Made by a program: the position numbers and the translations under genes | Shown here: piece by piece, positions 7,142 through 19,610 of the stretch | How the letters are laid out: each line of letters begins with the position of its first letter | Position numbering within the stretch: the first letter of the stretch is position 1 | From: a virus | DNA: 64,000 nt | Direction: 5' to 3' (one strand) | Virus record (IMG/VR): IMGVR_UViG_3300046506_000220 | Coordinates: 18,833 to 82,832 of that record | The notes under the pieces: model-generated | Told to the model about the DNA's origin: nothing | Seen by the model: the letters and a program-made list of their open reading frames with translations, nothing else | Databases searched by the model: none

Positions 7142-10100
7142 ATGCACACCAACCGCACACTCCGGGGCGCAGGTGGGGGCGGGAGTGGTTCGAAGAACCC
7201 CACCCGCACCGATGACAACCTGTTCTCGCGCGACACGGTCGAGATCGTCCTGGCGCTCGGTGAAGGTCCGATCCGGGGACTGCGCAATGGCATGCAGTCG
7301 TTCCATGTCGGCGGCACGCCGCTGATGTCGGAGAATGGCTCGATCAACTTCGAGTCGTTCAATCTTGGCGTCAAGCTCGGGCACCCCGGCGAGTCCCCGA
7401 TCAACTTCCAGCTCGGTGGCGAAGCCTCCAACACGGCCGTCGGCACGCGCCTCTTTCAGGGTACCTGGATCACCCGCCAGACCGATGCGTCGCTTCGGAA
7501 TGACATCGACCAGCTCCAGGTCCGGCTTCAGGTCAGCACGCTGTATGTCCAGAACGACAAGGGTTCGTTCAACAACACGGCGCACTTCCATATCCAGTAC
7601 CGCGCCGCGTCGAGTCCGTCCTGGTCGGAATACAACGGCAGCGGCGGCATTGCCGTGACGGGCAAGACCTCAAGCGGCGTGATCGTCGAGTATGCATGGA
7701 ATGTGCCGCGTATCAACGATGACTGGGTGATCCGCGTTCTCAAGGACAATCCCGACAGCAGCACCACCGACTATTGCGACATCACCTGGGAAAGCTTCCA
7801 GATGGTTACCGCGAGCAACCGGACCTATAACCGGGTTGCCCTCCTCCATCTGGTTGCGCTCGCAACAAGCCAGTTCAGCTCGATCCCGGATTTTGCGGCG
7901 GAAGTTGACGGTCTCGAACTGCTGGTGCCGACCAACTACAACACCGACCTGCACACCTACGACGAAGGCACGCCGTGGAACGGGGGGTTCAAGCAGACCT
8001 GGACCAACAATAACGCCTGGGTTCTCTACAACCTGATCATGAACCCCGACTGGGGACTGGCGAAGTACTACCCGTGGATCACCTGCAACCGCTTCGACTT
8101 CTACGATGCCGGTAAATGGTGTGATGTCATGGTCCCGGACGGGCGAGGCGGCTGGCAACCGCGCTACACCTTCAACATGGAGATCAAGGACGCGCAAAGT
8201 GGCCTTGACATGCTGCAGTACGTGGCGGGCACCTTCGGCGCGGTGATCTTCGACGATGCGACCGGCATGGTCCATCTGCGCGTCGACCGGTGGGAGGAAC
8301 CGACCCTGCTGCTGACACCCGAGAACGTGTCACCTGAGGGTTTCAGCTACACCTTCACCGATATGGCCTCCCGCTATAACGACCTGGAGGTGCATTTCGT
8401 CAACCCGGACCTGGATTATCAGGGTGACCTGCGCAACGTCACTGACCCGAACCATATCGCGCTATACGGCCATATCCCGAACTCGTTCGAGGCGATTGGC
8501 TGTACCAGCGAGCATGAAGCGCTGCGCCGCGCCTACTACCGGCTGATCACGAACCTGACCGAGACCATGACGGTCACGTGCAGGACCGCGCGGCTCGGAC
8601 GCATCATTGACCCGTACAGGCCGATCTACATTGCCGACCCGACCACTGGTTATTCGACGGGTGGCCGGATCAGGTCGATCGCCAACAACCTGATCTATCT
8701 GCGCGACCCGATCTATTTTACGGTCAACCAGAACTACAACCTGAAGCTTCAGGCGCGCGGCGGCCTGTGGACACTGGTGGTGGCGCCCGATATGGTCGGT
8801 AGTGCCTACCAGTTGCGCATCGTGAGTGGCGTCATCCCACCGGACATCCCCGACCGCACCGTCTTCACGATCGAGGATAACGGCGGCTTTGGCATTGCGA
8901 AGCCCTTCCGGCCGCTCACGATCAGTCCCGCCGATGGCTCACCGAACGAATACGACATCACGGCTGTCGAGATCAACATCAACAAGCAGGCCGCGGCGGA
9001 TAACTGCACACCCGTCGGTAGCACGCAGTATTCGTTCAAGAATCCGCTGATCCCCCCTCCCCCGACGAATCTGGTCGCGGAGTCGGGCACGGCCATGCTG
9101 TTTCTCAGCCAGGACGGCACCATCATGGCGCGCATTCACGCGTCGTGGGACCCGCCTGGGACCGCCGTCATCAAGAACTACCTGATCCACTGGAAGGAGT
9201 CCAACCAGTCGACGTGGTTCGAGACGACCTCGATGAGCGAGAGTGTCATCCTGGCACCCTGCAAGACGGGGGTGCAGTACGACATCGTTGTCTGGGCAAT
9301 CAGCAGCTTTGACTATCGTAGCGCCCAGCTCGCGATGTGGAACTACACCTGCCTGGGCAAGGATGAGCCGCCGAGTGACGTGCAGAACTTCAATGCCATC
9401 AAGCGCTCACAGGACATCCTGCTGAGATGGGATCCGATTGCGGATCTGGACCGCGCCGGCTATGAGCTGCGTCTGGGGTCCAACTGGGACACGGCGGTGG
9501 TGCTCGTGACCGACTATGCGGCCACCCAGTTTGCCTGGACCACCACGCAGGGGGGCAGCTACGACTTCCTGATCCGCGCCATCGACACCTCGCACAACTA
9601 CTCCCGCCTGCCAACCCGCACGACGCTGCGGCTGTACGGCCCGTCTGCGGTGACCGGGGCGATTGCGATCCAGTCAGGCAACCGGGTCGACCTGCGGTGG
9701 AATCCGAACCCGGAAGACAACATCACCGACTACGAGATCCGCGAGGGAGGCACGTGGGCGACCGCCGTGTTCGTGGCCAAGGTGAAGTCGACCACCTACG
9801 CCGCCACGGCGGGCGCGGCAGGTACGCGGATCTTCTGGCTGAAGGCGATCGCGTCGCCGGGGATCTATTCAGACAAGGCGACGTTCGTGACCACCGACAT
9901 CGCCCAGTCCGACAGCACCAACATCCTGTACTCGTCGGATGAGGTGGCCAAGGGCTTCACCGGGCCAAAGTTCAACATGGTGTCCTATGGCCAGTCGCTG
10001 CGCATGGATGATGGCAAGACGAGGTCTGAATACTTCTTCTCGGTGAACCTGGGAGATGTATTCCGTGCCCAGAACTCGCTGTTTATCGGCCTGAACGCGA

Positions 10101-10741
10101 TCACCGATGACAAGACCACCTGGGCGCAGTCGACCTTCCCGTGGAATGACCCGATCGCCAACAAGCAGTGGTCCACACCGGGGGATATTGCCTCGATCGG
10201 CTACAGGATGGAGATCGCGACTTCATCCAGCCTGCCTTCAAACGTGCTGTACTCGTGGCGCCTGAATAACGTCCTGACGTTTGCCGGCCCTGGTGAGGAT
10301 GGCGCCGTCACGATCCAGCAGACGGTCACCTACAAGCCCAGCAAGTATGGTTCTGGCCTGTGGTGTCAGACTGCGCCGCTGCAACCGCTGCCCACGCGGG
10401 TTAACTTCAGCGTCAACATCCCGAACGTGTTCAGCACGTCGTTCTGGTTCGTTCCGGACGATCTGACCGACCACTTCCCGATCGTGAACCTGCAGGGTCG
10501 TGATGGCGTGTTCATCAAGATCGGTTATGCCGCGGCGACCCAGACGATCTATGCGCTTGACAACGCCGGCAGGAAGGTGTCGGTGCCGGCGAATATCGAG
10601 GCGGGTGAGCGCTACTTCATCGGCTTTTCGCAGAACGTTAACGAACGGATGATCTGGTTCGGCAAGGACGACGGTTCCTGGGCACGCTCGTCGATTGCGC
10701 TTCCTGGCATCGGCGCCACCATCAACTACTCGCTCTACTGA
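7142..10741 (+). CDS. Central tail fibre / host specificity protein gpJ-like with FnIII repeats
   Basis: LGEGPIRGL, WTNNNAWVLY, WCDVMVPDG..PRYTFN and FnIII-like PPSDVQNF segments. 1199 aa. Confidence 0.9.
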   Translation: MHTNRTLRGAGGGGSGSKNPTRTDDNLFSRDTVEIVLALGEGPIRGLRNGMQSFHVGGTPLMSENGSINFESFNLGVKLGHPGESPINFQLGGEASNTAVGTRLFQGTWITRQTDASLRNDIDQLQVRLQVSTLYVQNDKGSFNNTAHFHIQYRAASSPSWSEYNGSGGIAVTGKTSSGVIVEYAWNVPRINDDWVIRVLKDNPDSSTTDYCDITWESFQMVTASNRTYNRVALLHLVALATSQFSSIPDFAAEVDGLELLVPTNYNTDLHTYDEGTPWNGGFKQTWTNNNAWVLYNLIMNPDWGLAKYYPWITCNRFDFYDAGKWCDVMVPDGRGGWQPRYTFNMEIKDAQSGLDMLQYVAGTFGAVIFDDATGMVHLRVDRWEEPTLLLTPENVSPEGFSYTFTDMASRYNDLEVHFVNPDLDYQGDLRNVTDPNHIALYGHIPNSFEAIGCTSEHEALRRAYYRLITNLTETMTVTCRTARLGRIIDPYRPIYIADPTTGYSTGGRIRSIANNLIYLRDPIYFTVNQNYNLKLQARGGLWTLVVAPDMVGSAYQLRIVSGVIPPDIPDRTVFTIEDNGGFGIAKPFRPLTISPADGSPNEYDITAVEININKQAAADNCTPVGSTQYSFKNPLIPPPPTNLVAESGTAMLFLSQDGTIMARIHASWDPPGTAVIKNYLIHWKESNQSTWFETTSMSESVILAPCKTGVQYDIVVWAISSFDYRSAQLAMWNYTCLGKDEPPSDVQNFNAIKRSQDILLRWDPIADLDRAGYELRLGSNWDTAVVLVTDYAATQFAWTTTQGGSYDFLIRAIDTSHNYSRLPTRTTLRLYGPSAVTGAIAIQSGNRVDLRWNPNPEDNITDYEIREGGTWATAVFVAKVKSTTYAATAGAAGTRIFWLKAIASPGIYSDKATFVTTDIAQSDSTNILYSSDEVAKGFTGPKFNMVSYGQSLRMDDGKTRSEYFFSVNLGDVFRAQNSLFIGLNAITDDKTTWAQSTFPWNDPIANKQWSTPGDIASIGYRMEIATSSSLPSNVLYSWRLNNVLTFAGPGEDGAVTIQQTVTYKPSKYGSGLWCQTAPLQPLPTRVNFSVNIPNVFSTSFWFVPDDLTDHFPIVNLQGRDGVFIKIGYAAATQTIYALDNAGRKVSVPANIEAGERYFIGFSQNVNERMIWFGKDDGSWARSSIALPGIGATINYSLY

Positions 10742-10743
10742 AA

Positions 10744-11205
10744 ATGGCCCATACCATTTCTGACATCGCGGTGATGAATACGGTGCTCGATGATGACCTT
10801 TTCGTTGCGGCACTCAAGGGTGATGCGCCGGTCGGTTTCCAGCCGTTCCAGACGTTCTACCCTGGTGACTACCAGTACAGCGAGGCAGTCTTCCGTTTAA
10901 GCATGGAATCCACCTCAGGCGACCGCGGCGTGGTTGAGAAGCTGAGCATTACGGTGGATGTACCGGATATTTTCGACCGGGGGCTGCAACTGCTTAACGC
11001 CGGAGGCGTGGTACGGGTCTATTTCGCACGGAAGTTTCATGTCCCACCCGTCGTGGTGGTCAGCGTGGAAAGTGCGAGTGATGCCTGTGTGGCCAAGTTT
11101 GATCCGGCCACTGTCACGAAGATGTATTTCGACTGCTTTCTTGAACGCGTCACCGACAAGGTCAAGATCGCTGGCGCGCTGACCTGGGCCGCACATGCGT
11201 ACTGA
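10744..11205 (+). CDS. Tail tip accessory protein (beta-rich; H-type lectin-like C-terminus)
   Basis: Coupled to gpJ. VRVYFARKFHVPPVVVVS and LTWAAHAY. Confidence 0.6.
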   Translation: MAHTISDIAVMNTVLDDDLFVAALKGDAPVGFQPFQTFYPGDYQYSEAVFRLSMESTSGDRGVVEKLSITVDVPDIFDRGLQLLNAGGVVRVYFARKFHVPPVVVVSVESASDACVAKFDPATVTKMYFDCFLERVTDKVKIAGALTWAAHAY

Positions 11206-11215
11206 AACAAAGTCC

Positions 11216-11251
11216 TTGGGGGCGCTCATCCGCGCCATTAAAATTTCGGCA
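11216..11251 (+). promoter_or_regulatory. Putative promoter of tail fibre module 1
   Basis: TTGGGG-N17-TAAAAT. The 13-mer TAAAATTTCGGCA recurs exactly at 15206-15218. Confidence 0.5.
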
Positions 11252-11268
11252 AGCTAACGGACATCACC

Positions 11269-12771
11269 ATGCAAGGCTATACACAGATCCCCGACAGCGA
11301 GCGGGTTTCCGACTCGCTGATCCCGCTGCTCACGAATGATCAGGTGGCGATTTCGCGCAACGCGGGGTCGGCCTTCCCGACGTCCGGTCTGGTGGTGGGC
11401 ATGCCGTATCTGGCGGTCAGTGAAAACAAGCTCTACCGGCTGACCAGCCTCGCGCCGCTGACCTGGGTCGTGGAGCTGGACTACAACATCGCCTATGCGA
11501 CGGTGAATGATATTGCCGCGTCCAATGCGAACGCCAACCTGCGCATGTTGCGCAGCGGCGACCTGATGACGGGTTTTCTGACCCTGTTCAATGATCCGAC
11601 GCAGGCGCTGCACGCCGCGCCCAAGCGCTACGTCGACAACCAGATGGCCATCGCCGCGACCAGTGCGAACGCCCGCGTGGCGCGCAGCGGCGACCTGATG
11701 ACGGGCTACCTGACGTTGGTCGGGGACCCCTCCCAGCCCTATCACGCCGCGACCAAAAACTATGCTGACTACCTGTACAACGCGCTGAACAGCGCGAAGG
11801 TGGGCCGCAACAGCGACACCTTCAACGAGGTTTACAACAACGGCTGGTACCGCTCGAATGGCGCGGTCGGCTGGTACAGCCAGAGCTATGGCGGCGGCAT
11901 CTGGATGGCTGACCCCTACTATGTGAGCGTGTATGGCGGCAAGGGCTTTCGCACCGACACCCACACGCTGGAGATCGGCACGGGTGGCATCTGGACCGCG
12001 CGCTACGGCTGGCTTGAAAACCGCTTCGCCGGCAAGGGCGCGGAAGACCGGATCAACGGCACGGCGACGGTTGACGCCGGTTCGGGCGGTGTCCTTGCCC
12101 CTGCGTCTTTCTACCTTGACCGTAGCGGCTCGGCCGCGCGCCTCGTGCGCGTCTACGGCAACTGCAACTGCAACTGCGCGTGCACGTGCTTCCCGGCCGG
12201 CACGCCGATCCTGCTGGGCGATGGCAAAACGTGGATGTCCGTCGAACACATCCGCCCGGGCGACATGGTGATGACGCCGCTTGGGCCGATGCCCGTGCTC
12301 GAGGTGGAAACGCCTGTTCTCGGCGATCGCAGGATGCTCGGCTTTGCTGACGATCCGTTTGTACGCTGGACCGACGATCACGCATTCTGGACGCGCCGCG
12401 ATGGTCGCGAAGGCCTCGCCGTGGCCGATCGCGCGAGCTTCATGCGTGGCGTCGAGCTGGGCGTCGTGCGCGGCCTTCCGGATAACGATGCGGTGCTCGA
12501 GCTTGACGATGAGCGCGACGAATTCGCGCACTTTATGGGCGGCTGGGTTCGCCAGAAGGTGGTCGATTTCACCGACGGGCACGCGCCCGATACGCGCGTG
12601 TACCTGCCGATCGTGGGCGGCTGTCACCTGATCATTGCCGCCGGCTACGTGATGAGCGGCGGCGCCAACGGCTTTGACTTCGACTATCACTCGCTCGACT
12701 GGGATGCCATGCAGCGCCAGCGGTATTCCGGGAACTCACCCAGGGGGACTGCCCATGCTGCTGGTCCATAA
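11269..12771 (+). CDS. Tail fibre with Cys-rich NCNCNCACT motif fused to a C-terminal Hint (intein/Hedgehog-like) domain
   Basis: Two SGDLMTG..HAA.K.Y fibre repeats and a GWYSQSYGGGIWM segment. Hint block A CFPAGT starts at Cys307, block B is TDDH, and the C-terminal block is VYLPIVGGCH..AAGYVMSG. Confidence 0.85.
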   Translation: MQGYTQIPDSERVSDSLIPLLTNDQVAISRNAGSAFPTSGLVVGMPYLAVSENKLYRLTSLAPLTWVVELDYNIAYATVNDIAASNANANLRMLRSGDLMTGFLTLFNDPTQALHAAPKRYVDNQMAIAATSANARVARSGDLMTGYLTLVGDPSQPYHAATKNYADYLYNALNSAKVGRNSDTFNEVYNNGWYRSNGAVGWYSQSYGGGIWMADPYYVSVYGGKGFRTDTHTLEIGTGGIWTARYGWLENRFAGKGAEDRINGTATVDAGSGGVLAPASFYLDRSGSAARLVRVYGNCNCNCACTCFPAGTPILLGDGKTWMSVEHIRPGDMVMTPLGPMPVLEVETPVLGDRRMLGFADDPFVRWTDDHAFWTRRDGREGLAVADRASFMRGVELGVVRGLPDNDAVLELDDERDEFAHFMGGWVRQKVVDFTDGHAPDTRVYLPIVGGCHLIIAAGYVMSGGANGFDFDYHSLDWDAMQRQRYSGNSPRGTAHAAGP

Positions 12772-13486
12772 ATCCCTCATTGCCACCGAGCTGACGGTTG
12801 AAGAGGCACAGCAGGTTACCGACATCGTCAACGTGCTGCCGACGGACACCGGCTTCGTGATGCAGTGCCCGTCGCTGAGCCTCTACTGGCAGTTCAACCT
12901 GGAGCTGGTCGAGCACGGTAACGACATCCTGTACCTGAACCGTACGCGCGCGGGCCAGTGGACGGTCATGTGGGCGACCGACCTGCACGAGTCGAAAGAC
13001 AGCTGGTCATCGGTGATGCTGCGCAAGAACCTGGATGAGTTCCGCCCGCTGGTAATGATCGGCATCAGCCCCGACAGGAAGGACTACACCGCGATCTTCT
13101 TCTGTAACACCCGTGAGCCGAACAATCCGCAGCCGCTGGTTGATGACACCACCGAGACGGGTGACATGTCGATGAAGCGCCTGATGCCCGGCATCGAGCC
13201 GCTGCTGCAACGTCACTGGGCGAAGCACAAGCTCCTGAAGGGTGTGAAGACCAATGACTCGCTGGCCGCGCTCGAAGCGCAGGTGGACCTGCTGACGTTC
13301 TGGCTGCTCGAGTACCTGCCCGAGGACAAGCGCCAGAAACTCCTTGACGCAGGGGTGCTGAAACTCAAGGATGAAGAGACACTTTTCGATGACGTGATCG
13401 CCTACAAGACCCGCCTGCGTGAACGGCAGGCGCTCTACCTTGCGACGCTGAGCCAGTATGACAACCTTCGTCCTGAAAACGGTTGA
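12755..13486 (+). CDS. Hypothetical protein within the fibre/radical SAM module
   Basis: ATG at 12755 after the RBS AGGGGG. Overlaps both neighbouring genes. Helical C-terminus. Confidence 0.7.
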   Translation: MLLVHKSLIATELTVEEAQQVTDIVNVLPTDTGFVMQCPSLSLYWQFNLELVEHGNDILYLNRTRAGQWTVMWATDLHESKDSWSSVMLRKNLDEFRPLVMIGISPDRKDYTAIFFCNTREPNNPQPLVDDTTETGDMSMKRLMPGIEPLLQRHWAKHKLLKGVKTNDSLAALEAQVDLLTFWLLEYLPEDKRQKLLDAGVLKLKDEETLFDDVIAYKTRLRERQALYLATLSQYDNLRPENG

Positions 13487-14822
13487 CGCGACGGGTACCG
13501 GGCGCGACTTCTTCTACAACAACATGCGCAGCACGCTGGTGGATGCCGTCACCGGCCGCAGCGTCGTGCCGCTCACCGAGGCGCCTGAGCGCGCGCCGTT
13601 CCAGCATCCAGGCCGCAAGGACCACACGATCCGCACGCTCAAGATCCAGCTCGGTCTCTCGTGCAACTACAGCTGCGAGTATTGCAGCCAGCGCTTCGTG
13701 CCGCATGCGCAGCCGACCGGCCCCTACTCGGTTGACCAGTTCATCTCGCGCCTGTCGTGGAACGCGTCGCTCGCGGACGATGCGACGATCGAGTTCTGGG
13801 GGGGCGAGCCGCTCGTCTACTGGAAGACGCTGGTGCCACTGGTTGAGCAGCTGCGCATCCGCTATCCGGCGCTGACCCTGAAGATGATCACCAACGGCTC
13901 GCTGCTCGACCCGATGAAAGCAGGCTGGCTGATCTCGCAGGGTTTTCACATCGGCCTCTCGCATGATGGTCCTGGGCAGGTCGCGCGTGGTCCGGATCCG
14001 CTCGACGAACCCGCCACGCGCGAGGCGATCCTGATGTTGTACCGGCGACTGGCGCCACTTGGGCGCATGTCGTTCAACACGATGCTGCACAGGGACAATC
14101 GGTCGCGAAAAGCGGTACAGGCGTTTTTCGTCGAGCTGACGGGCGATGAGCATGTGTCCATTGGCGAGGGCATGTTCGTCGATGCGTACGATGAGGGCGG
14201 CAAGGGCATGTCGATGCCGGATCCGCATGACCACATCGATTACCGCCGCCAGGCGTTCGAGGAGCTGCGCACCGGCCAGGCGCTGAACTTCATGAATGTC
14301 ACGCAGAAGATCCAGGATTTCGCCCAGTCGGTTGCGACCGGCCGGCCGGCCTCGACGGTCGGCCAGAAATGCGGATCCGATCGCGCCGACAGCCTGACGG
14401 TGACGCTCGAAGGCGATGTGCTGACCTGCCAGAATGTCTCGGCCGTGGCGGTGGCACCGAACGGCACGCCACATCGTGCGGGGTCGCTCGATGATCTGCA
14501 GTCGGTGCAGCTCACCTCGTCGCGTCACTGGTCGACGCGTTCGCACTGTTCGGGCTGTCCGGTTCTGCAGCTGTGCAAGGGCAGCTGCATGTTCCTCGAG
14601 GGGGACCTGTGGAACGTCACCTGTGACAGCGCGTATAGCGATAACGTGGTGTTCCTCGCAACCGCCCTGCTCGAGCTGACAGGCTGCACCCTGAAGCGCA
14701 TCGAGCCGATGACGGGCAGTCTGCCTGAGCCCCGCCAGAACGTCTTTGGGCCGCTCGCCACGCCGCGGGCCGCACCCGCACCCCGCAAGATCATCTGGAT
14801 CAGAACGGAGACACCATCTTGA
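13458..14822 (+). CDS. Radical SAM/SPASM-domain protein (anSME/peptide maturase-like)
   Basis: CNYSCEYC (CX3CX2C), FWGGEPL, ITNG and SHDG. SPASM Cys in KCG..LTCQN and CSGCPVLQLCKGSC (CX2CX5CX3C)..C. Confidence 0.93.
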   Translation: MTTFVLKTVDATGTGRDFFYNNMRSTLVDAVTGRSVVPLTEAPERAPFQHPGRKDHTIRTLKIQLGLSCNYSCEYCSQRFVPHAQPTGPYSVDQFISRLSWNASLADDATIEFWGGEPLVYWKTLVPLVEQLRIRYPALTLKMITNGSLLDPMKAGWLISQGFHIGLSHDGPGQVARGPDPLDEPATREAILMLYRRLAPLGRMSFNTMLHRDNRSRKAVQAFFVELTGDEHVSIGEGMFVDAYDEGGKGMSMPDPHDHIDYRRQAFEELRTGQALNFMNVTQKIQDFAQSVATGRPASTVGQKCGSDRADSLTVTLEGDVLTCQNVSAVAVAPNGTPHRAGSLDDLQSVQLTSSRHWSTRSHCSGCPVLQLCKGSCMFLEGDLWNVTCDSAYSDNVVFLATALLELTGCTLKRIEPMTGSLPEPRQNVFGPLATPRAAPAPRKIIWIRTETPS

Positions 14823-15124
14823 ACGACGATCAGGCACAGCAACAGCAACTCGACCCGCAAGGTGTGCAGTTCACCATCCGGGCGCTGCAGGACCAGCGTA
14901 ATGAGCAGGCTGATCGCGCAGCTCAGGCCACGGCTGTGGTCCAGCAACTGCAGGCCCGGATCGAGCAGCATGTGAAGCGCGATGCTCAACTGCAATCGCA
15001 GCTCGATGACATGAAAAACCAGCTTGAACTGACGAAGTCGGCACTGGCTGATGTGCAGACACGCGCGACGGGCATGGGCGTGGTGAATGTTGCGATAAAG
15101 AGCGCGACCGGGGCGAATGGTTAG
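14819..15124 (+). CDS. Small coiled-coil protein
   Basis: 4 bp overlap with the rSAM stop. Gln-rich heptads. Confidence 0.6.
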   Translation: MNDDQAQQQQLDPQGVQFTIRALQDQRNEQADRAAQATAVVQQLQARIEQHVKRDAQLQSQLDDMKNQLELTKSALADVQTRATGMGVVNVAIKSATGANG

Positions 15125-15181
15125 TTCTGGTTAGAAAGGATACCGAAACGTATCATTTCGTTGGCGGTGCGAATAAACTCT

Positions 15182-15218
15182 TTGGCCAAGCCCTGCCCCT
15201 CCCCGTAAAATTTCGGCA
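15182..15218 (+). promoter_or_regulatory. Putative promoter of tail fibre module 2
   Basis: TTGGCC-N18-TAAAATTTCGGCA, the same 13-mer as at 11239. Confidence 0.5.
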
Positions 15219-15243
15219 CTCACCCACCACTGAGTGCTGATTC

Positions 15244-18200
15244 ATGGCCAACAGCGGCGCCCCCACCAACGCGGATGGTGCAACGGTCACGACCGTGCTG
15301 GCGCCCGTTGCCTCGACGACACCGCATGCGCCGATCGCGATGCTGTATGGTCTCGGCCCACCGATCAGCAGCATCGGGGTCGAGGGCGCGTTCTACCGGG
15401 ACATGAACAACGATGACATGTACGGTCCCAAGGCGGGCGGTGTGTGGCCTGACGCGTACAGCATCCGTGGCTGGAAAGGTGACCAGGGTGTGCAGGGTGA
15501 GGTTGGGACGCTCAACCCGGACGACCAGGCCTACATCGACGCGGCGAAGACCGCTACGGATGCCAACCGCACCGCTGCTGCTGCCAGTCAGGCTGCTGCC
15601 GCGACCAGCGCAACCAGTGCGGGGACGTCAGCCACCAATGCGCATACGAGCGAAACGAACGCAGCTGCAAGTCAGGCCGCCGCCGTAACAAGCCAGGCCG
15701 CCGCCGACGCATCGAAGACGGCCGCGGCCGGCAGCGCGACGCAGGCCGACACCTCGAAAAATGCTGCGGCGACGAGTGCCGGCGCGGCGAGCACCTCGGC
15801 GACCGCTGCGGACCAGTCGAAGCAGGCCGCCGCGACGAGTGCTACCGCCGCAGCCGGCAGCGCTACCGCCGCTGATACGTCGAAGACGGCAGCGGACGCC
15901 AGCAAGACTGCTGCGGCCGGCAGTGCGACGGCAGCAGGCAACAGCGCGACGGCCGCCGCCCTTTCCGCAACCAGCATCGGTAACTCGGAAACGAATGCCC
16001 TCGCCTCGAAGAACGCGGCGGCTGCGAGCGCCAGCGCCGCCGACGTATCGAAGACGGCCGCTGCCGGCAGTGCCACCGCAGCCGCTACGAGTGCGACGGG
16101 CGCGGCCAGCTCGAAGACGGGCGCTGACAACAGTGCCACGGCAGCGGCTGGTAGCGCGACGGCAGCGGATGCCAGCAAGACTGCTGCTGCCGGCAGTGCG
16201 ACGGCAGCGGATGCCAGCAAGAGCGCTGCTGCGGGTTCCGCCAGTGCCGCAGCCGGCAGCGCCACAGCAGCGGACGCCAGCAAGAGCGCTGCCGCTCTTT
16301 CCGCCAGCAGCATCGGTAGCTCGGAAACGAACGCCCTGGCTTCGGCCAATGCAGCGGCGGCGAGTGCGAGCGCCGCCGACGTATCGAAGACGGATGCTGC
16401 CACGAGCGCGACGGAGGCTGGGTCGAGTGCGACGGCAGCAGCCACGAGCGCGACGGAGGCTGATGACAGCGCTGCTGCAGCAGCCGGTAGTGCAACGGCA
16501 GCGGATACCAGCAAGACGGCTGCCGATGCATCGAAGACAGCTGCTGCCGGTAGTGCAACGGCCGCTGCCGGCAGTGCGACGGCAGCAGGCAACAGCGCCG
16601 CCGCCGCGAGCGCCAGTGCCGCCAGCATCGGTAGCTCGGAAACCAATGCCCTGGCCTCGGCGGATGCAGCGGCAGCCAGTGCCAGCGCCGCCGACGTATC
16701 GAAGACGGCCGCTGCCGACAGTGCAACGGCCGCTGCCGGCAGTGCCGCCGCAGCCGCGACGAGTGCGACGGCGGCAGCCACCTCGAAGACGGGGGCTGAC
16801 AACAGCGCTGCTGCAGCGGATGCCAGCAAGACGGCTGCGGCAGGTTCCGCCAGTGCCGCAGCCGGCAGTGCGACAGCAGCAGGCGACAGCGCGACGGCGG
16901 CAGGCGACAGCGCGACGGCGGCAGGCGACAGCGCGACGGCCGCTGCCCTGTCGGCCACCAGCCTCGGTAACTCGGAAACGAACGCCCTGGCTTCGGCCAA
17001 TGCAGCGGCTGCGAGCGCGACGGACGCAGCCGGCAGCGCGACGCAGGCCGATACATCGAAGCAGGCGGCGGCGACGAGCGCAGGTGCTGCGAGCAGCTCA
17101 GCCACGGCAGCGGACCAGTCGAAGCAGGCGGCAGCGACGAGCGCCACGGCCGCCGCCGCGAGTGCCACCGCTGCTGACACCTCGAAGAACGCCGCAGCCG
17201 GCAGCGCGACAGCGGCAGGTAATAGCGCGACAGCGGCAGGCGATAGCGCCACGGCGGCAGGCAACAGCGCCGCCAGCATCGGCAACTCGGAGACGAACGC
17301 ACTGGCCTCGGCTAATGCTGCGGCGGCCAGCGCGACGCAGGCCGATACATCGAAGCAGGTGGCGGCGACGAGCGCGAGCGCAGCCGCGACGAGTGCGACG
17401 GCGGCAGCCACCTCGAAGACGGGGGCTGATAACAGTGCCACGGCAGCAGCTGGCAGCGCCACGGCAGCGGATGCGTCGAAGACGGCTGCTGCTGGTAGTG
17501 CCACGGCAGCAGGTAACAGCGCCACAGCAGCGGACGCCAGCAAGACTGCTGCGGCCAGCAGCGCCACGGCAGCGGCCACCTCCGTCGCCAGCATCGGTAA
17601 CTCGGAAACGAATGCCCTGGCCTCGGCCAATGCCGCTGCGGCGAGCGCTGCTGCCGCCGATACATCGAAGAATGCTGCGGCGACGAGTGCAGGTGCAGCC
17701 GCAACTAGTGCGACGGGCGCGGCCACCTCGAAGACGGGGGCGGACAACAGCGCCACGGCAGCGGATGCCAGCAAGACTGCAGCGGCTGGTAGCGCCAGTG
17801 CTGCTGACACCTCGAAGACCGCTGCTGCCGGCAGCGCGACGGCAGCGGCCGGTAGCGCCACGGCGGCGGACACCAGCAGGACAGCTGCCGCAGGTTCTGC
17901 TACTGCAGCAGCTGACAGCGCCACGGCGGCAGGCAACAGCGCGACCGCGGCGGCTAACAGCGCATCGGGTGCAGCAACCAGCGCGAACAATGCCTCAGCA
18001 ACGTTAGCGAACGCCCTGACGAAGGCTAATAACCTGTCCGATGTGGCTGATGCTGCCACCGCGCGCTCGAACCTCGGGCTGGGCACGGCAGCTACGCACC
18101 CCGTCGGGGACCTGCTCCAGACGGCGAACAACCTGTCCGACGTGACCCCCGCCACCGCGCGCTCGAACCTCGGGCTGGGCACGGTTGCCACGCACCCCGT

Positions 18201-18711
18201 CGGGGACCTGCTCCAGACGGCGAACAACCTGTCGGACCTCCAGAGTGCATCGACCGCGCGCTCGAACCTCGGGCTGGGCACGGCAGCTACGCACCCGCTC
18301 ACGGACTTCGTCCAGCCGACGAACAACCTGTCGGACGTGCAGAACGCGGGGACCGCGCGAGCCAACATCGGGGCCAATGTGTACGACATTGCGCTGTCGA
18401 TTGAAGGCAAGACAACCAACGCAGAGCTGGTGTTCAACTTTGTGGTGGGGCGTGCCTTCACCTGGCCCGCGAACCTTACCGGCTCCGCGGCGAAAGCGTC
18501 CGTTGCAGCAACCGCTTCAGCGACCTTCTCGATCACGCAGAACGGTGGCGCGATTGGCTCTTTCAACTTTGCAGCCAGTGCCACGGTTGCCACGTTCACT
18601 TTCGCTTCTCCCGTGACCTTTGCCGCAGGCGACCTGATCCAGATTACGGCTCCGGCGACCGCTGATACCACCCTCGCGAATATCGGCGTGACCTTTGCAG
18701 GAACACGGTGA
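15244..18711 (+). CDS. Side tail fibre (Stf-like), Ala/Ser/Thr repeat shaft
   Basis: About 800 aa of SETNALAS / SKTAAAGSATAA repeats, then NNLSD..ARSNLGLG repeats and a beta-rich tip. Confidence 0.88.
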   Translation: MANSGAPTNADGATVTTVLAPVASTTPHAPIAMLYGLGPPISSIGVEGAFYRDMNNDDMYGPKAGGVWPDAYSIRGWKGDQGVQGEVGTLNPDDQAYIDAAKTATDANRTAAAASQAAAATSATSAGTSATNAHTSETNAAASQAAAVTSQAAADASKTAAAGSATQADTSKNAAATSAGAASTSATAADQSKQAAATSATAAAGSATAADTSKTAADASKTAAAGSATAAGNSATAAALSATSIGNSETNALASKNAAAASASAADVSKTAAAGSATAAATSATGAASSKTGADNSATAAAGSATAADASKTAAAGSATAADASKSAAAGSASAAAGSATAADASKSAAALSASSIGSSETNALASANAAAASASAADVSKTDAATSATEAGSSATAAATSATEADDSAAAAAGSATAADTSKTAADASKTAAAGSATAAAGSATAAGNSAAAASASAASIGSSETNALASADAAAASASAADVSKTAAADSATAAAGSAAAAATSATAAATSKTGADNSAAAADASKTAAAGSASAAAGSATAAGDSATAAGDSATAAGDSATAAALSATSLGNSETNALASANAAAASATDAAGSATQADTSKQAAATSAGAASSSATAADQSKQAAATSATAAAASATAADTSKNAAAGSATAAGNSATAAGDSATAAGNSAASIGNSETNALASANAAAASATQADTSKQVAATSASAAATSATAAATSKTGADNSATAAAGSATAADASKTAAAGSATAAGNSATAADASKTAAASSATAAATSVASIGNSETNALASANAAAASAAAADTSKNAAATSAGAAATSATGAATSKTGADNSATAADASKTAAAGSASAADTSKTAAAGSATAAAGSATAADTSRTAAAGSATAAADSATAAGNSATAAANSASGAATSANNASATLANALTKANNLSDVADAATARSNLGLGTAATHPVGDLLQTANNLSDVTPATARSNLGLGTVATHPVGDLLQTANNLSDLQSASTARSNLGLGTAATHPLTDFVQPTNNLSDVQNAGTARANIGANVYDIALSIEGKTTNAELVFNFVVGRAFTWPANLTGSAAKASVAATASATFSITQNGGAIGSFNFAASATVATFTFASPVTFAAGDLIQITAPATADTTLANIGVTFAGTR
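18029..18375 (+). repeat. Tandem coding repeats of about 96-99 bp (NNLSDV..TARSNLGLGT..THP) in the fibre
   Basis: ACCGCGCGCTCGAACCTCGGGCTGGGCACGG occurs three times, plus a degenerate fourth unit. Confidence 0.9.
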
Positions 18712-19610
18712 TGGCGCAGAAATTCGTCATCCTGACGAGTGGCAACCAGTGGGCTGTTCCGGCTGACTGTTCTGGCACGCTCGACAAGGTCGAGATGATC
18801 GGGGCCTCAGGCTCTGCCATGCGTGGTGGGGGTGCTGGTGGTAGTTACGCTGTCCAGCCGAACCTGGTCGTGGGCGCTCCGGGAACCGTGGTGAACTATC
18901 AGATAGGTGCGGCCCCCGTTGCGGGCACAAACAGTCCTGGTCCCTTCACTACACAGCGCTCATGGTTTCTCGATCAAACGAAGTACCGCGCAGGGGGTGG
19001 GACTTGCTGCTACAACAATGCAGCAGCACTAGCTACCCCCGACTCCGCTGTTCAAGCAGGAGGTACTTCGTACCTCGGCGGTAATGGCGGTGCCCAGGCT
19101 TCTACAGGTTCAGGTAATGGCGGGGGGGGTGGTGCGGCAGGGCCTTTGGGTGTTGGTGGTAAGGGGGGGTCTGCTGTTGGTTCAGGCACAGGCAGTGGAG
19201 GTGGTGGTGGCGCCAATAATGGTGTCGCTGCTGCTAATGGCACTAATGGCACTGCAACTGCAACGGCTGGTGGTAATTCGGGCACTGGTGGAGTCGGTGG
19301 TATCGCAGGTACTGCAACTGTTCCTAATGGTGGTGCCGGGGGTCCCGGTGCTGGCGGTGGGGGAGCTACCACGACCACAGGTGTTGGTGGTAAGGGCGGT
19401 GATGGTAACGGCATGGCTGATGGCTCTGTAGGCCCCGGTGGTGGGGGCGGTGGAGGGAAAGTCGCAAGTACCATGGGCGGCGCTGGTGGTCAGTATGGTG
19501 GTGGTCCCGGTGGTGGTACCGCGAATCAGGCAGGTACCCAAGGTCTCATCGTCCTCACCTACACACCCGTGGCCGCAGCCGCGCGGCGCATCGTATCGAT
19601 AGTGGTCTGA
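18708..19610 (+). CDS. Glycine-rich tail fibre-associated protein (putative adhesin)
   Basis: Coupled to the fibre gene. GGGGAAG / GGGGG loops resemble polyglycine II sandwich adhesins. Confidence 0.7.
   Translation: MMAQKFVILTSGNQWAVPADCSGTLDKVEMIGASGSAMRGGGAGGSYAVQPNLVVGAPGTVVNYQIGAAPVAGTNSPGPFTTQRSWFLDQTKYRAGGGTCCYNNAAALATPDSAVQAGGTSYLGGNGGAQASTGSGNGGGGGAAGPLGVGGKGGSAVGSGTGSGGGGGANNGVAAANGTNGTATATAGGNSGTGGVGGIAGTATVPNGGAGGPGAGGGGATTTTGVGGKGGDGNGMADGSVGPGGGGGGGKVASTMGGAGGQYGGGPGGGTANQAGTQGLIVLTYTPVAAAARRIVSIVV

Follow-up and report, generated by a model that had tools for sequence, protein, structure and literature searches.

Phage fibre tips decide host range, and to our knowledge they consist of ordinary amino acids, with chaperones, chaperone domains that cleave themselves off, or bound metal ions as the only aids to their assembly. 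The viral genome IMGVR_UViG_3300046506_000220 raises the question of what a radical S-adenosylmethionine (SAM) enzyme with a SPASM domain does behind a tail fibre gene whose product contains a run of alternating asparagine and cysteine residues, here called the Asn-Cys ladder. The DNA studied comprises bases 18833–82832 of this 82,832-nt phage genome, and the whole 64,000-nt stretch is referred to as the window. The genome is a single contig; one sequencing run is listed with this stretch, a rhizosphere DNA metagenome that may be its source, and no RNA run is. An earlier note had described four overlapping genes at 11216–15124, and these are present as described, with exact coordinates: the open reading frame (ORF) listing places them on the + strand at 11269–15124, successive genes overlapping by 17, 29 and 4 nt. 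The gene order of the tail region matches that of Achromobacter phage JWF (81.5 kb), in which the fibre is gp028 and the radical SAM enzyme gp030. The best explanation, judged fairly probable as a whole, is that a JWF-like siphophage carries a fibre-tip maturation module, in which the fibre would be cleaved by its own Hint domain and the ladder modified by the radical SAM enzyme, with thioethers as the most likely product.

The tail fibre, the radical SAM/SPASM enzyme and their linkage

The first gene of the cassette (11269–12771, + strand) encodes a 500-aa precursor which, by sequence type and position, was classed as a phage tail fibre. It matched PHROG tail-fibre families (best 5.6e-6), gave tblastn matches to annotated tail fibres and lies downstream of gpJ (7142–10741, + strand; FNIII-A_GpJ 1e-14, Phage-tail_3 2.7e-11), a position that is the same in phage JWF. 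Within the fibre body, aa 1–297 (11269–12159), are an attachment part at the N-terminus, repeats of the fibre type and a segment resembling PilV/shufflon sequences; this segment has a Shufflon_N match at aa 189–232 (E 0.0046) that is below the cut-off of that family. The body is followed by the ladder NCNCNCACT at aa 298–306 (12160–12186), the proposed substrate, so that the sequence reads ...VRVYG-NCNCNCACT-CFPAGTPILLGDG..., with Cys307-FPAGT directly after the ladder. The Cys-rich run described in the earlier note as abutting Cys307 can thus be read directly.

The ladder positions, N61-C70 of an alignment of 10 homologues (A2), are invariant or nearly so, and the fibre is the sole carrier of an N-C ladder in the 82,832-nt genome. 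Across 42 distinct ladders the 224 non-Cys positions were 71% N, 12% D and 8% A, in a set found with a regular expression that biases toward N/D. Three overlapping NxxC motifs are present in the window's ladder, at N298/C301, N300/C303 and N302/C305.

The third gene of the cassette (13458–14822, + strand) encodes a 454-aa enzyme that matches phrog_1802 at 6.4e-57. Cysteines C69, C73 and C76 of the CxxxCxxC motif (nt 13662–13685) and the seven SPASM cysteines C305, C324, C364, C367, C373, C377 and C389 (nt 14370–14624) are invariant in three phages and 15 homologues. The SPASM family TIGR04085 was matched at aa 305–379 with a score of 30.2 against a cut-off of 27; of the radical SAM families in Pfam, Fer4_12 gave 22.9 against a cut-off of 22 and PF04055 gave 25.9, under its cut-off of 29.5. 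The proposal that a complete radical SAM/SPASM enzyme is encoded here is borne out by the intact, invariant motifs and the TIGR04085 score. The nearest solved relatives by sequence are 8vpo_A, CteB and anSME.

The association between enzyme and ladder was surveyed in both directions. The forward sample contained 80 of 460 viral and 80 of 122 genomic loci with confirmed relatives of the enzyme, plus JWF and Ralstonia phage RSP15, giving 162 loci. Loci with at least 3.5 kb upstream were evaluated for a + strand ORF with an (N/D-C)n ladder within 4.5 kb, and such an ORF was found upstream of the enzyme in 104 of 113. In four of the nine misses the ladder stands at a greater distance upstream, and another four have Cys-alternating C-terminal tails outside the regular expression (NCNCNCACTCK, GNCACACNCACSD, ACNCAGGACDCG and NTNCQCGN, the last being the end of the RSP15 'fibre fragment'); only locus L153, in a non-phage context, has no such tail. 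The background was low: among the remaining 7,949 ORFs of the 162 loci the regular expression matched 4, all four being far-upstream fibres of the same kind. When 157 enzyme sequences were clustered, excluding fragments shorter than 380 aa as well as L001, whose phage is already represented by L012, 18 of 22 evaluable clusters at 70% identity and 9 of 11 at 60% identity were ladder-positive.

In the reverse direction viral contigs were scanned with the DNA pattern of NCNCNCNC, which gave at least 120 loci. In 65 of these the ladder was located at most 15 residues from the C-terminus encoded by an ORF that is 90 aa or longer. The 55 others, in which the pattern fell in a short ORF, a different frame or an internal position, were left unscored; many of them are AT-rich giant-virus bins. 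Among the matches listed, 35 of the 36 ladder loci with at least 4 kb downstream had a homologue of the enzyme on the same strand, in some cases only 20–26% identical to that of the window. The linkage spans siphovirus-like, myovirus (RSP15) and prophage contexts. The link between enzyme and ladder is strong both ways, as predicted by the earlier note, which had proposed a neighbourhood survey of the enzyme's homologues for (NC)n fibres with or without a Hint domain.

Two further observations concern the range of these enzymes. Locus L153, from a Sulfuritalea metagenome-assembled genome (MAG), has long flanks and a homologue of 42% identity, and its upstream ORFs resemble ABC-exporter/HlyD-type proteins, judged by C-terminal sequences alone; it may represent a cellular, non-phage use of the enzyme. 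Small proteins (approximately 70–135 aa, one of 393 aa) with NCNCNC-type ladders at their ends, such as ...HTHIFYDDYSTACNCNCNCNC... or QGCQTCQGCQ...NCNCNCSNCDC..., occur near radical SAM genes only 20–26% identical to that of the window (L172, L224, L236, L263, L279, L245). Pairs of ladder and enzyme may on this evidence form a broader superfamily.

The C-terminal ladder and the Hint domain

The number of residues following the ladder falls into discrete classes: 0–9 in 106 loci, 18 in one, and 161–193, forming a Hint-type extension, in 11, with none between. The 11 extended loci are those of the window's clade and L107. In the window the extension comprises aa 307–500 (12187–12771), with Cys307 as residue 1, and was assigned by family profile as a Hint (intein-like) autoprocessing domain. 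A model of fibre aa 238–500 made by AlphaFold2 (AF2) from 10 sequences had a mean pLDDT of 45.7, too poor for a fold search, and sequence profiles were therefore used instead. The A2 profile matched the intein 8w20_A (5.1e-8) and PI-SceI (7.8e-7) in the PDB, from Cys1 through TxxH, and Hom_end_hint was detected in all 10 family members at E≤1 (best 1.2e-12). Cys307 aligns with profile position 1–2 of Hint_2, Vint and Hom_end_hint, and a relaxed Pfam scan of the C-terminal part of the fibre returned Hint families only. The TxxH block is TDDH at aa 368–371 (nt 12370–12381); Cys307 and His371 (H134 of A2) are invariant, and the threonine (T131) is nearly so, being serine in JWF. The Hint assignment holds at the level of the family, on whose profile it rests. 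As there is no C-extein after the domain, cleavage rather than splicing would be expected, with self-cleavage predicted at Thr306|Cys307.

A Hint-less 306-aa fibre at locus L056 (L056:4705–5625) aligns end to end with aa 1–307 of the window's fibre (11269–12189; E 1e-24), and its last residue is the last ladder cysteine, aligned with Cys307. The end of this fibre indicates that the Hint domain is fused in register with the ladder and, taken with the C-terminal placement of ladders elsewhere, gives the Hint fibres the look of fibres that terminate in a ladder and have a removable cap fused to its final cysteine. The earlier note had suggested that Hint cleavage exposes the ladder as a new C-terminus, which predicts that Hint-less relatives should end there; the L056 fibre does so, at the residue aligned with Cys307, and the suggestion is well supported by this comparison of sequences.

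A second Hint fusion occurs in a different fibre. This one, at L107:4205–5335, from a Burkholderiaceae MAG, reads ...NCDCNCNCGTC-CFPLDTQITMADG... and carries a divergent Hint-like domain (CFPLD; 33% identity over 45 aa). Its cassette is of the type with F2 and an oxygenase (see below), and its enzyme belongs to another clade. The Hint state changes twice on the tree of the enzyme, a quick LG+G4 tree of 58 representatives (85% identity clusters) with a midpoint root, in which the join of the long branches L002 and L161 is unreliable. A free ladder end could be needed for the geometry of the tip or for the enzyme.

Peptidase S74 C-terminal chaperone domains of the endosialidase or T5 pb1 type self-cleave from phage fibres and spikes, leaving the mature tip. 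The window's fibre would likewise have a self-removing C-terminal domain, but one that differs in fold and mechanism, being of the Hint/intein type with Cys1 and TxxH.

Proposed chemistry at the ladder and its alternatives

In the favoured explanation the 500-aa fibre precursor would be made first. The Hint domain would then cut itself off by an N-S acyl shift at Cys307, assisted by the TDDH block, to leave the ladder ...NCNCNCACT as a free C-terminus, which in most relatives is the end as encoded. Modification of the ladder by the dedicated radical SAM/SPASM enzyme would follow, a substrate cysteine being held on the open iron of a three-Cys auxiliary cluster I (AuxI). The likely products would be thioethers between cysteine sulfur and Asn/Asp side-chain carbons (ranthionine-type), and the outcome would be a fibre tip resistant to reduction and to protease. 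The 243-aa protein encoded by the second gene (F4) would probably, on tentative evidence given below, serve as partner to an enzyme for which the family scans reported no recognition domain for peptides made by ribosomes and altered after translation (RiPPs).

It is the two-way gene linkage that suggests an action of the enzyme on the ladder. The type of bond is suggested by the class of the enzyme, the three-Cys cluster, the N/D bias of the alternate positions and the precedent of NxxcB. In anSME auxiliary cluster I is fully Cys-ligated, and the sulfatase substrates carry a CxPxR-type motif. In the HMMER alignment anSME shows an additional cysteine, six residues past its first SPASM cysteine (TCtcQ), that the window's enzyme does not have; the Cys-free stretch opposite this second cysteine of the anSME SPASM region implies that AuxI should have three protein ligands. 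CteB likewise has a single cysteine at that position, resembling the window's enzyme.

Several characterised SPASM systems resemble parts of the module. CrpC of Methanococcus voltae installs ranthionine thioethers on CrpA, possibly helped by the neighbouring CrpB, and the study's authors argue that its three-Cys AuxI ligation leaves an iron free for the substrate cysteine (Dieter et al. 2026, PMC13692751). CrpC shares the 7-Cys SPASM domain with the window's enzyme, and its substrate, encoded adjacent to it, is a whole Cys-rich protein (CrpA, 28.8 kDa) and not a short peptide. CrpC differs in being archaeal and cellular, in having a RiPP recognition element (RRE) and in belonging to TIGR04463, while CrpA has no Asn-Cys ladder, C-terminal constraint or Hint domain; the accessible text of PMC13692751 makes no mention of 'phage' or 'viral'. 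NxxcB, from a streptococcal RaS-RiPP system, links cysteine to the beta-carbon of asparagine in an NxxC motif, with Ala, Gln and Asp tolerated (PMC9389541). The same motif occurs in three overlapping copies in the window's ladder, but NxxcA is a short peptide with a leader, from which a secreted natural product is made, whereas the proposed substrate here is a 500-aa virion protein. QhpD, of quinohaemoprotein amine dehydrogenase, is a SPASM enzyme that makes Cys-Asp/Glu thioethers on the protein subunit QhpC (via PMC13692751). PapB, also a SPASM enzyme making Cys-Asp/Glu thioethers, can link cysteine to a residue with a free C-terminal carboxylate (PMC12373016), which by analogy is a possible reason for the C-terminal ladder. 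Neither of these two systems is viral, the window's enzyme falls below the cut-offs of both families (scores are given below), and the acceptors of PapB are carboxylates C-terminal to the cysteine. CrpC/CrpA and QhpD/QhpC together set a precedent for SPASM action on whole proteins.

The literature searches found no description of a radical SAM enzyme that accompanies the fibre of a phage, most subscription papers being outside their reach. Two papers returned for JWF (PMC9959647 and PMC7996906) make no mention of 'radical' or 'Hint' in their accessible portions, and one returned for radical SAM, tail fiber and thioether (PMC12801897) was not relevant as far as its accessible part goes. Compared with the SPASM maturases that have Cys-rich protein substrates, the viral setting, the virion fibre as substrate and the Hint cap would be new. 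The interpretation in the earlier note of RiPP-like chemistry on a virion structural protein is supported by the neighbourhood survey that it proposed, with the chemistry itself being predicted from sequence and precedent.

The gene for F4 is located at 12755–13486 on the + strand, with an ATG at 12755; an alternative TTG start is listed at 12674, and the 243-aa form is P0001 in the homologue collection. The earlier note had called this protein an unknown, in agreement with the family searches: it has no known family, and none of its 19 homologues has a Pfam domain. The AF2 model (pLDDT 86.1, pTM 0.76) consists of a beta-rich domain at aa 1–130 and a helical part at aa 136–237. Foldseek returned nothing from the PDB at E≤0.001, the best Z in the VIA wide structure search was 5.6, and the ESM Atlas gave no usable feature match, its own model having a pLDDT of 0.36. 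SPP1 gp22 (2xc8; Z 5.4, rmsd 3.3 over 95 residues, model 2–118) was set aside as a relative, since the match is below noise level and serves as a lead only.

A possible complex was predicted with three chains, comprising the enzyme, the fibre tail (aa 238–306) and F4 as the scored partner. The score was 0.60 (runs 0.62, 0.60 and 0.00) against 0.00 for the best of three controls, which included one with the enzyme replaced; at least 1% of contacts are common to the runs, and the partner pLDDT was at least 73. In calibration 58 of 80 solved complexes attain the mark set for this score, as do 2 of 110 mismatched pairs; with scores of 0.60 or less it is attained by only 7 of those 80 and by both mismatches. 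The prediction gives a weak hint that F4 may bind the enzyme. The part of the earlier proposal that made F4 a chaperone or substrate adaptor gains weak support in this way.

The cassette between ladder and enzyme is variable. Architectures were counted for loci with a ladder matching the regular expression and a ladder-enzyme gap of up to 3.3 kb. The commonest, at 48 loci, has a protein of approximately 280 aa with no Pfam family (F2) followed by a 2OG-Fe(II) oxygenase (F1, PF13759), with further oxygenases (F3) at some loci. The window's type has F4 alone between ladder and enzyme and accounts for 10 loci with a Hint domain. F4 occupies this position in 16 loci, six of them Hint-less, and the minimal layout of fibre, F4 and enzyme is present in L089 and L161. 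None of the listed architectures contains both F2 and F4, and hhalign gave a probability of 0.1 for the pair, with no detectable homology.

Individual cassettes show additional enzymes. Most have one to three 2OG-Fe(II) oxygenases between ladder fibre and radical SAM enzyme, as at L017:6315–7001, L013:5490–6771 and L025:5668–7001, with matches to PF13759 of up to 8e-10 and also to PF13640; their sequences hint at additional hydroxylation. At L144:5699–6787, and also at L145, L150 and L154, a second radical SAM gene (340–362 aa; PF04055 1.2e-11) is directly upstream of the SPASM enzyme, in cassettes of the Ferrovibrio and Rhodospirillaceae types.

A number of results weigh against thioether formation on a Hint-cleaved fibre. 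The window's own Hint copy scores below the cut-off of every Pfam family that it resembles (Hint_2, 15.2–15.7 against 28.4, E 0.02–0.03; Vint, 13.8–14.1 against 27, E 0.04–0.05; Hom_end_hint, 11.3–11.9 against 32.1, E 0.2–0.35), and the AF2 model of the fibre part that includes it is poor. The enzyme is likewise far under every curated family cut-off: 46.1 against 340 for PapB (NF047865), 42.8 against 453 for QhpD (TIGR03906), 27.9 against 525 for the CrpC family (TIGR04463), 23.4 against 425 for the SCIFF maturase (TIGR03974) and 41.2 against 349.45 for anSME (TIGR03942). The first four of these matches cover mainly the radical SAM core, and no chemistry can be transferred to the enzyme by family membership. 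The acceptor geometry is ambiguous, as the ladder neighbours at -3, -1, +1 and +3 are all N/D, and acceptors are C-terminal to the cysteine in PapB (PMC12373016) and CrpA (PMC13692751) but N-terminal in NxxC. Most other cassettes carry 2OG-Fe(II) oxygenases and the protein of approximately 280 aa, both of which are absent from the window's locus, so that the full chemistry may differ between clades. Some contigs are common to the forward and reverse sets, which also contain close relatives and are not independent samples, and the three-chain complex result is weak, its setup being unlike the calibration of the tool.

A different reaction at the ladder, such as formylglycine formation (anSME-like), sactionine alpha-carbon links, epimerisation or C-C links, is the alternative that survives best, and it is considered quite unlikely. 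The absence of any curated assignment leaves room for it, and anSME aligns with the window's enzyme nearly throughout (profile 70–392 against anSME 14–343, E 2.5e-12; TIGR03942 over aa 65–377). Like anSME, the enzyme appears to have no N-terminal recognition domain: only approximately 57 aa precede the radical SAM core, probably too few for a full RRE domain, whereas CteB residue 81 aligns with query position 45, and the family scans reported no PqqD/RRE family for the enzyme or for F4. The resemblance does not extend to the substrate or the cluster, as direct reading found no CxPxR-type sulfatase motif in the ladder and the enzyme is without the extra AuxI cysteine of anSME, while the enrichment of N/D at alternate positions suits acceptors better than bystanders.

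The ladder may instead be a metal- or Fe-S-binding motif of a trimeric fibre tip, with the SPASM enzyme loading or building the site. The His-x-His iron sites of T4 gp37 are an analogue, and cysteine at every second residue would suit one face of a beta-strand lining the trimer axis; a hairpin just before the ladder was seen only in the low-confidence AF2 model. The authors of the CrpC study suspect metal binding by CrpA (PMC13692751). A dedicated radical SAM enzyme is not required for a metal site, yet 35 of the 36 testable ladder loci have one among the matches listed; nothing would demand 83% N/D at the outward-facing positions, and no SPASM enzyme with a role of this sort was found as a precedent. 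Metal binding as the main function of the ladder is accordingly rated improbable.

That the enzyme is auxiliary or anti-defence cargo (viperin-like or metabolic), unrelated to ladder and Hint domain, is very improbable: phage tail regions do collect cargo genes and weak viperin matches exist (NF038283 2.2e-10, far below cut-off; PDB viperins at E of approximately 7e-4), but the linkage runs both ways over siphovirus-like, RSP15 myovirus and prophage contexts and in 9 of 11 clusters at 60% identity, the genes are on one strand and overlap translationally, and just one of 36 ladder fibres with long flanks lacked the enzyme among the matches listed.

The favoured explanation, a Hint-cleaved fibre with an enzymatically modified ladder, can be extended to a bolder form. 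In many phages of Beta- and Alphaproteobacteria the enzyme might create a non-proteinogenic structure on the receptor-binding end of the fibre, with stacked crosslinks in the ladder, possibly between the three chains, which would need the free C-terminal carboxylate; in the Hint clades the Thr306-Cys307 thioester, instead of undergoing plain hydrolysis, might be captured by a ladder thiol or other nucleophile, giving a cyclised or ligated tip. This form is regarded as doubtful.

Neighbouring genes and wider meaning

The earlier note had placed the four genes between gpJ and the side fibre, and they were found there, together with a further gene that it had not counted. This conserved ORF (10744–11205, + strand) between gpJ and the fibre encodes a 153-aa protein with no Pfam or PHROG family match and is directly upstream of a fibre homologue in 39 of 162 loci (tblastn); it travels with the fibre N-terminus and is outside the modification cassette. 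The fourth cassette gene (14819–15124, + strand) encodes a 101-aa coiled-coil protein that had been taken as part of the system. By tblastn it is present in 7 of 162 loci, all in the window's clade, and the genes 3' of the enzyme belong to unrelated families across loci, the window's family having 8 members. The coiled coil is probably clade-specific and not part of the conserved system.

The cassette had also been described as lying behind its own promoter-like motif. The motif, TTGGGG-17-TAAAAT at 11216–11244, matches at 8 of 12 positions, and a sigma-70 scan of 11206–11268 found no site; the claim is not supported. The sole pass of the scan in 10600–15400 was TTGGCC-18-TAAAAT at 15182–15211, just before a large fibre gene; its TAAAAT hexamer is the same as that of the weak motif at 11239–11244. 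A terminator-like hairpin on the - strand is located at 15160–15144. The large gene (15244–18711) lies in a stretch with a GC content of 0.71 and an AT skew of 0.38 and encodes a 1,155-aa Ala/Ser/Thr-rich repeat fibre, which ends in three NNLSDV...ARSNLGLG repeats. The gene is followed by a 300-aa Gly-rich ORF (18708–19610), and neither of the two has a Pfam family.

Phages with loci of this kind probably modify their fibre tips chemically, as judged from the sequence comparisons. If this is true, chemistry of the type used for peptide antibiotics takes part in virion assembly at well over a hundred phage and prophage loci, and SPASM enzymology gains a large new family of protein substrates built on a simple repeat. 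If the reading with a crosslinked or ligated tip were true, a virus particle would for the first time be seen to undergo modification by enzymatic radical chemistry. The two Hint fusions offer a natural experiment on what ties the ladder to the C-terminus, and Achromobacter phage JWF, as a cultivable relative, makes the system testable.

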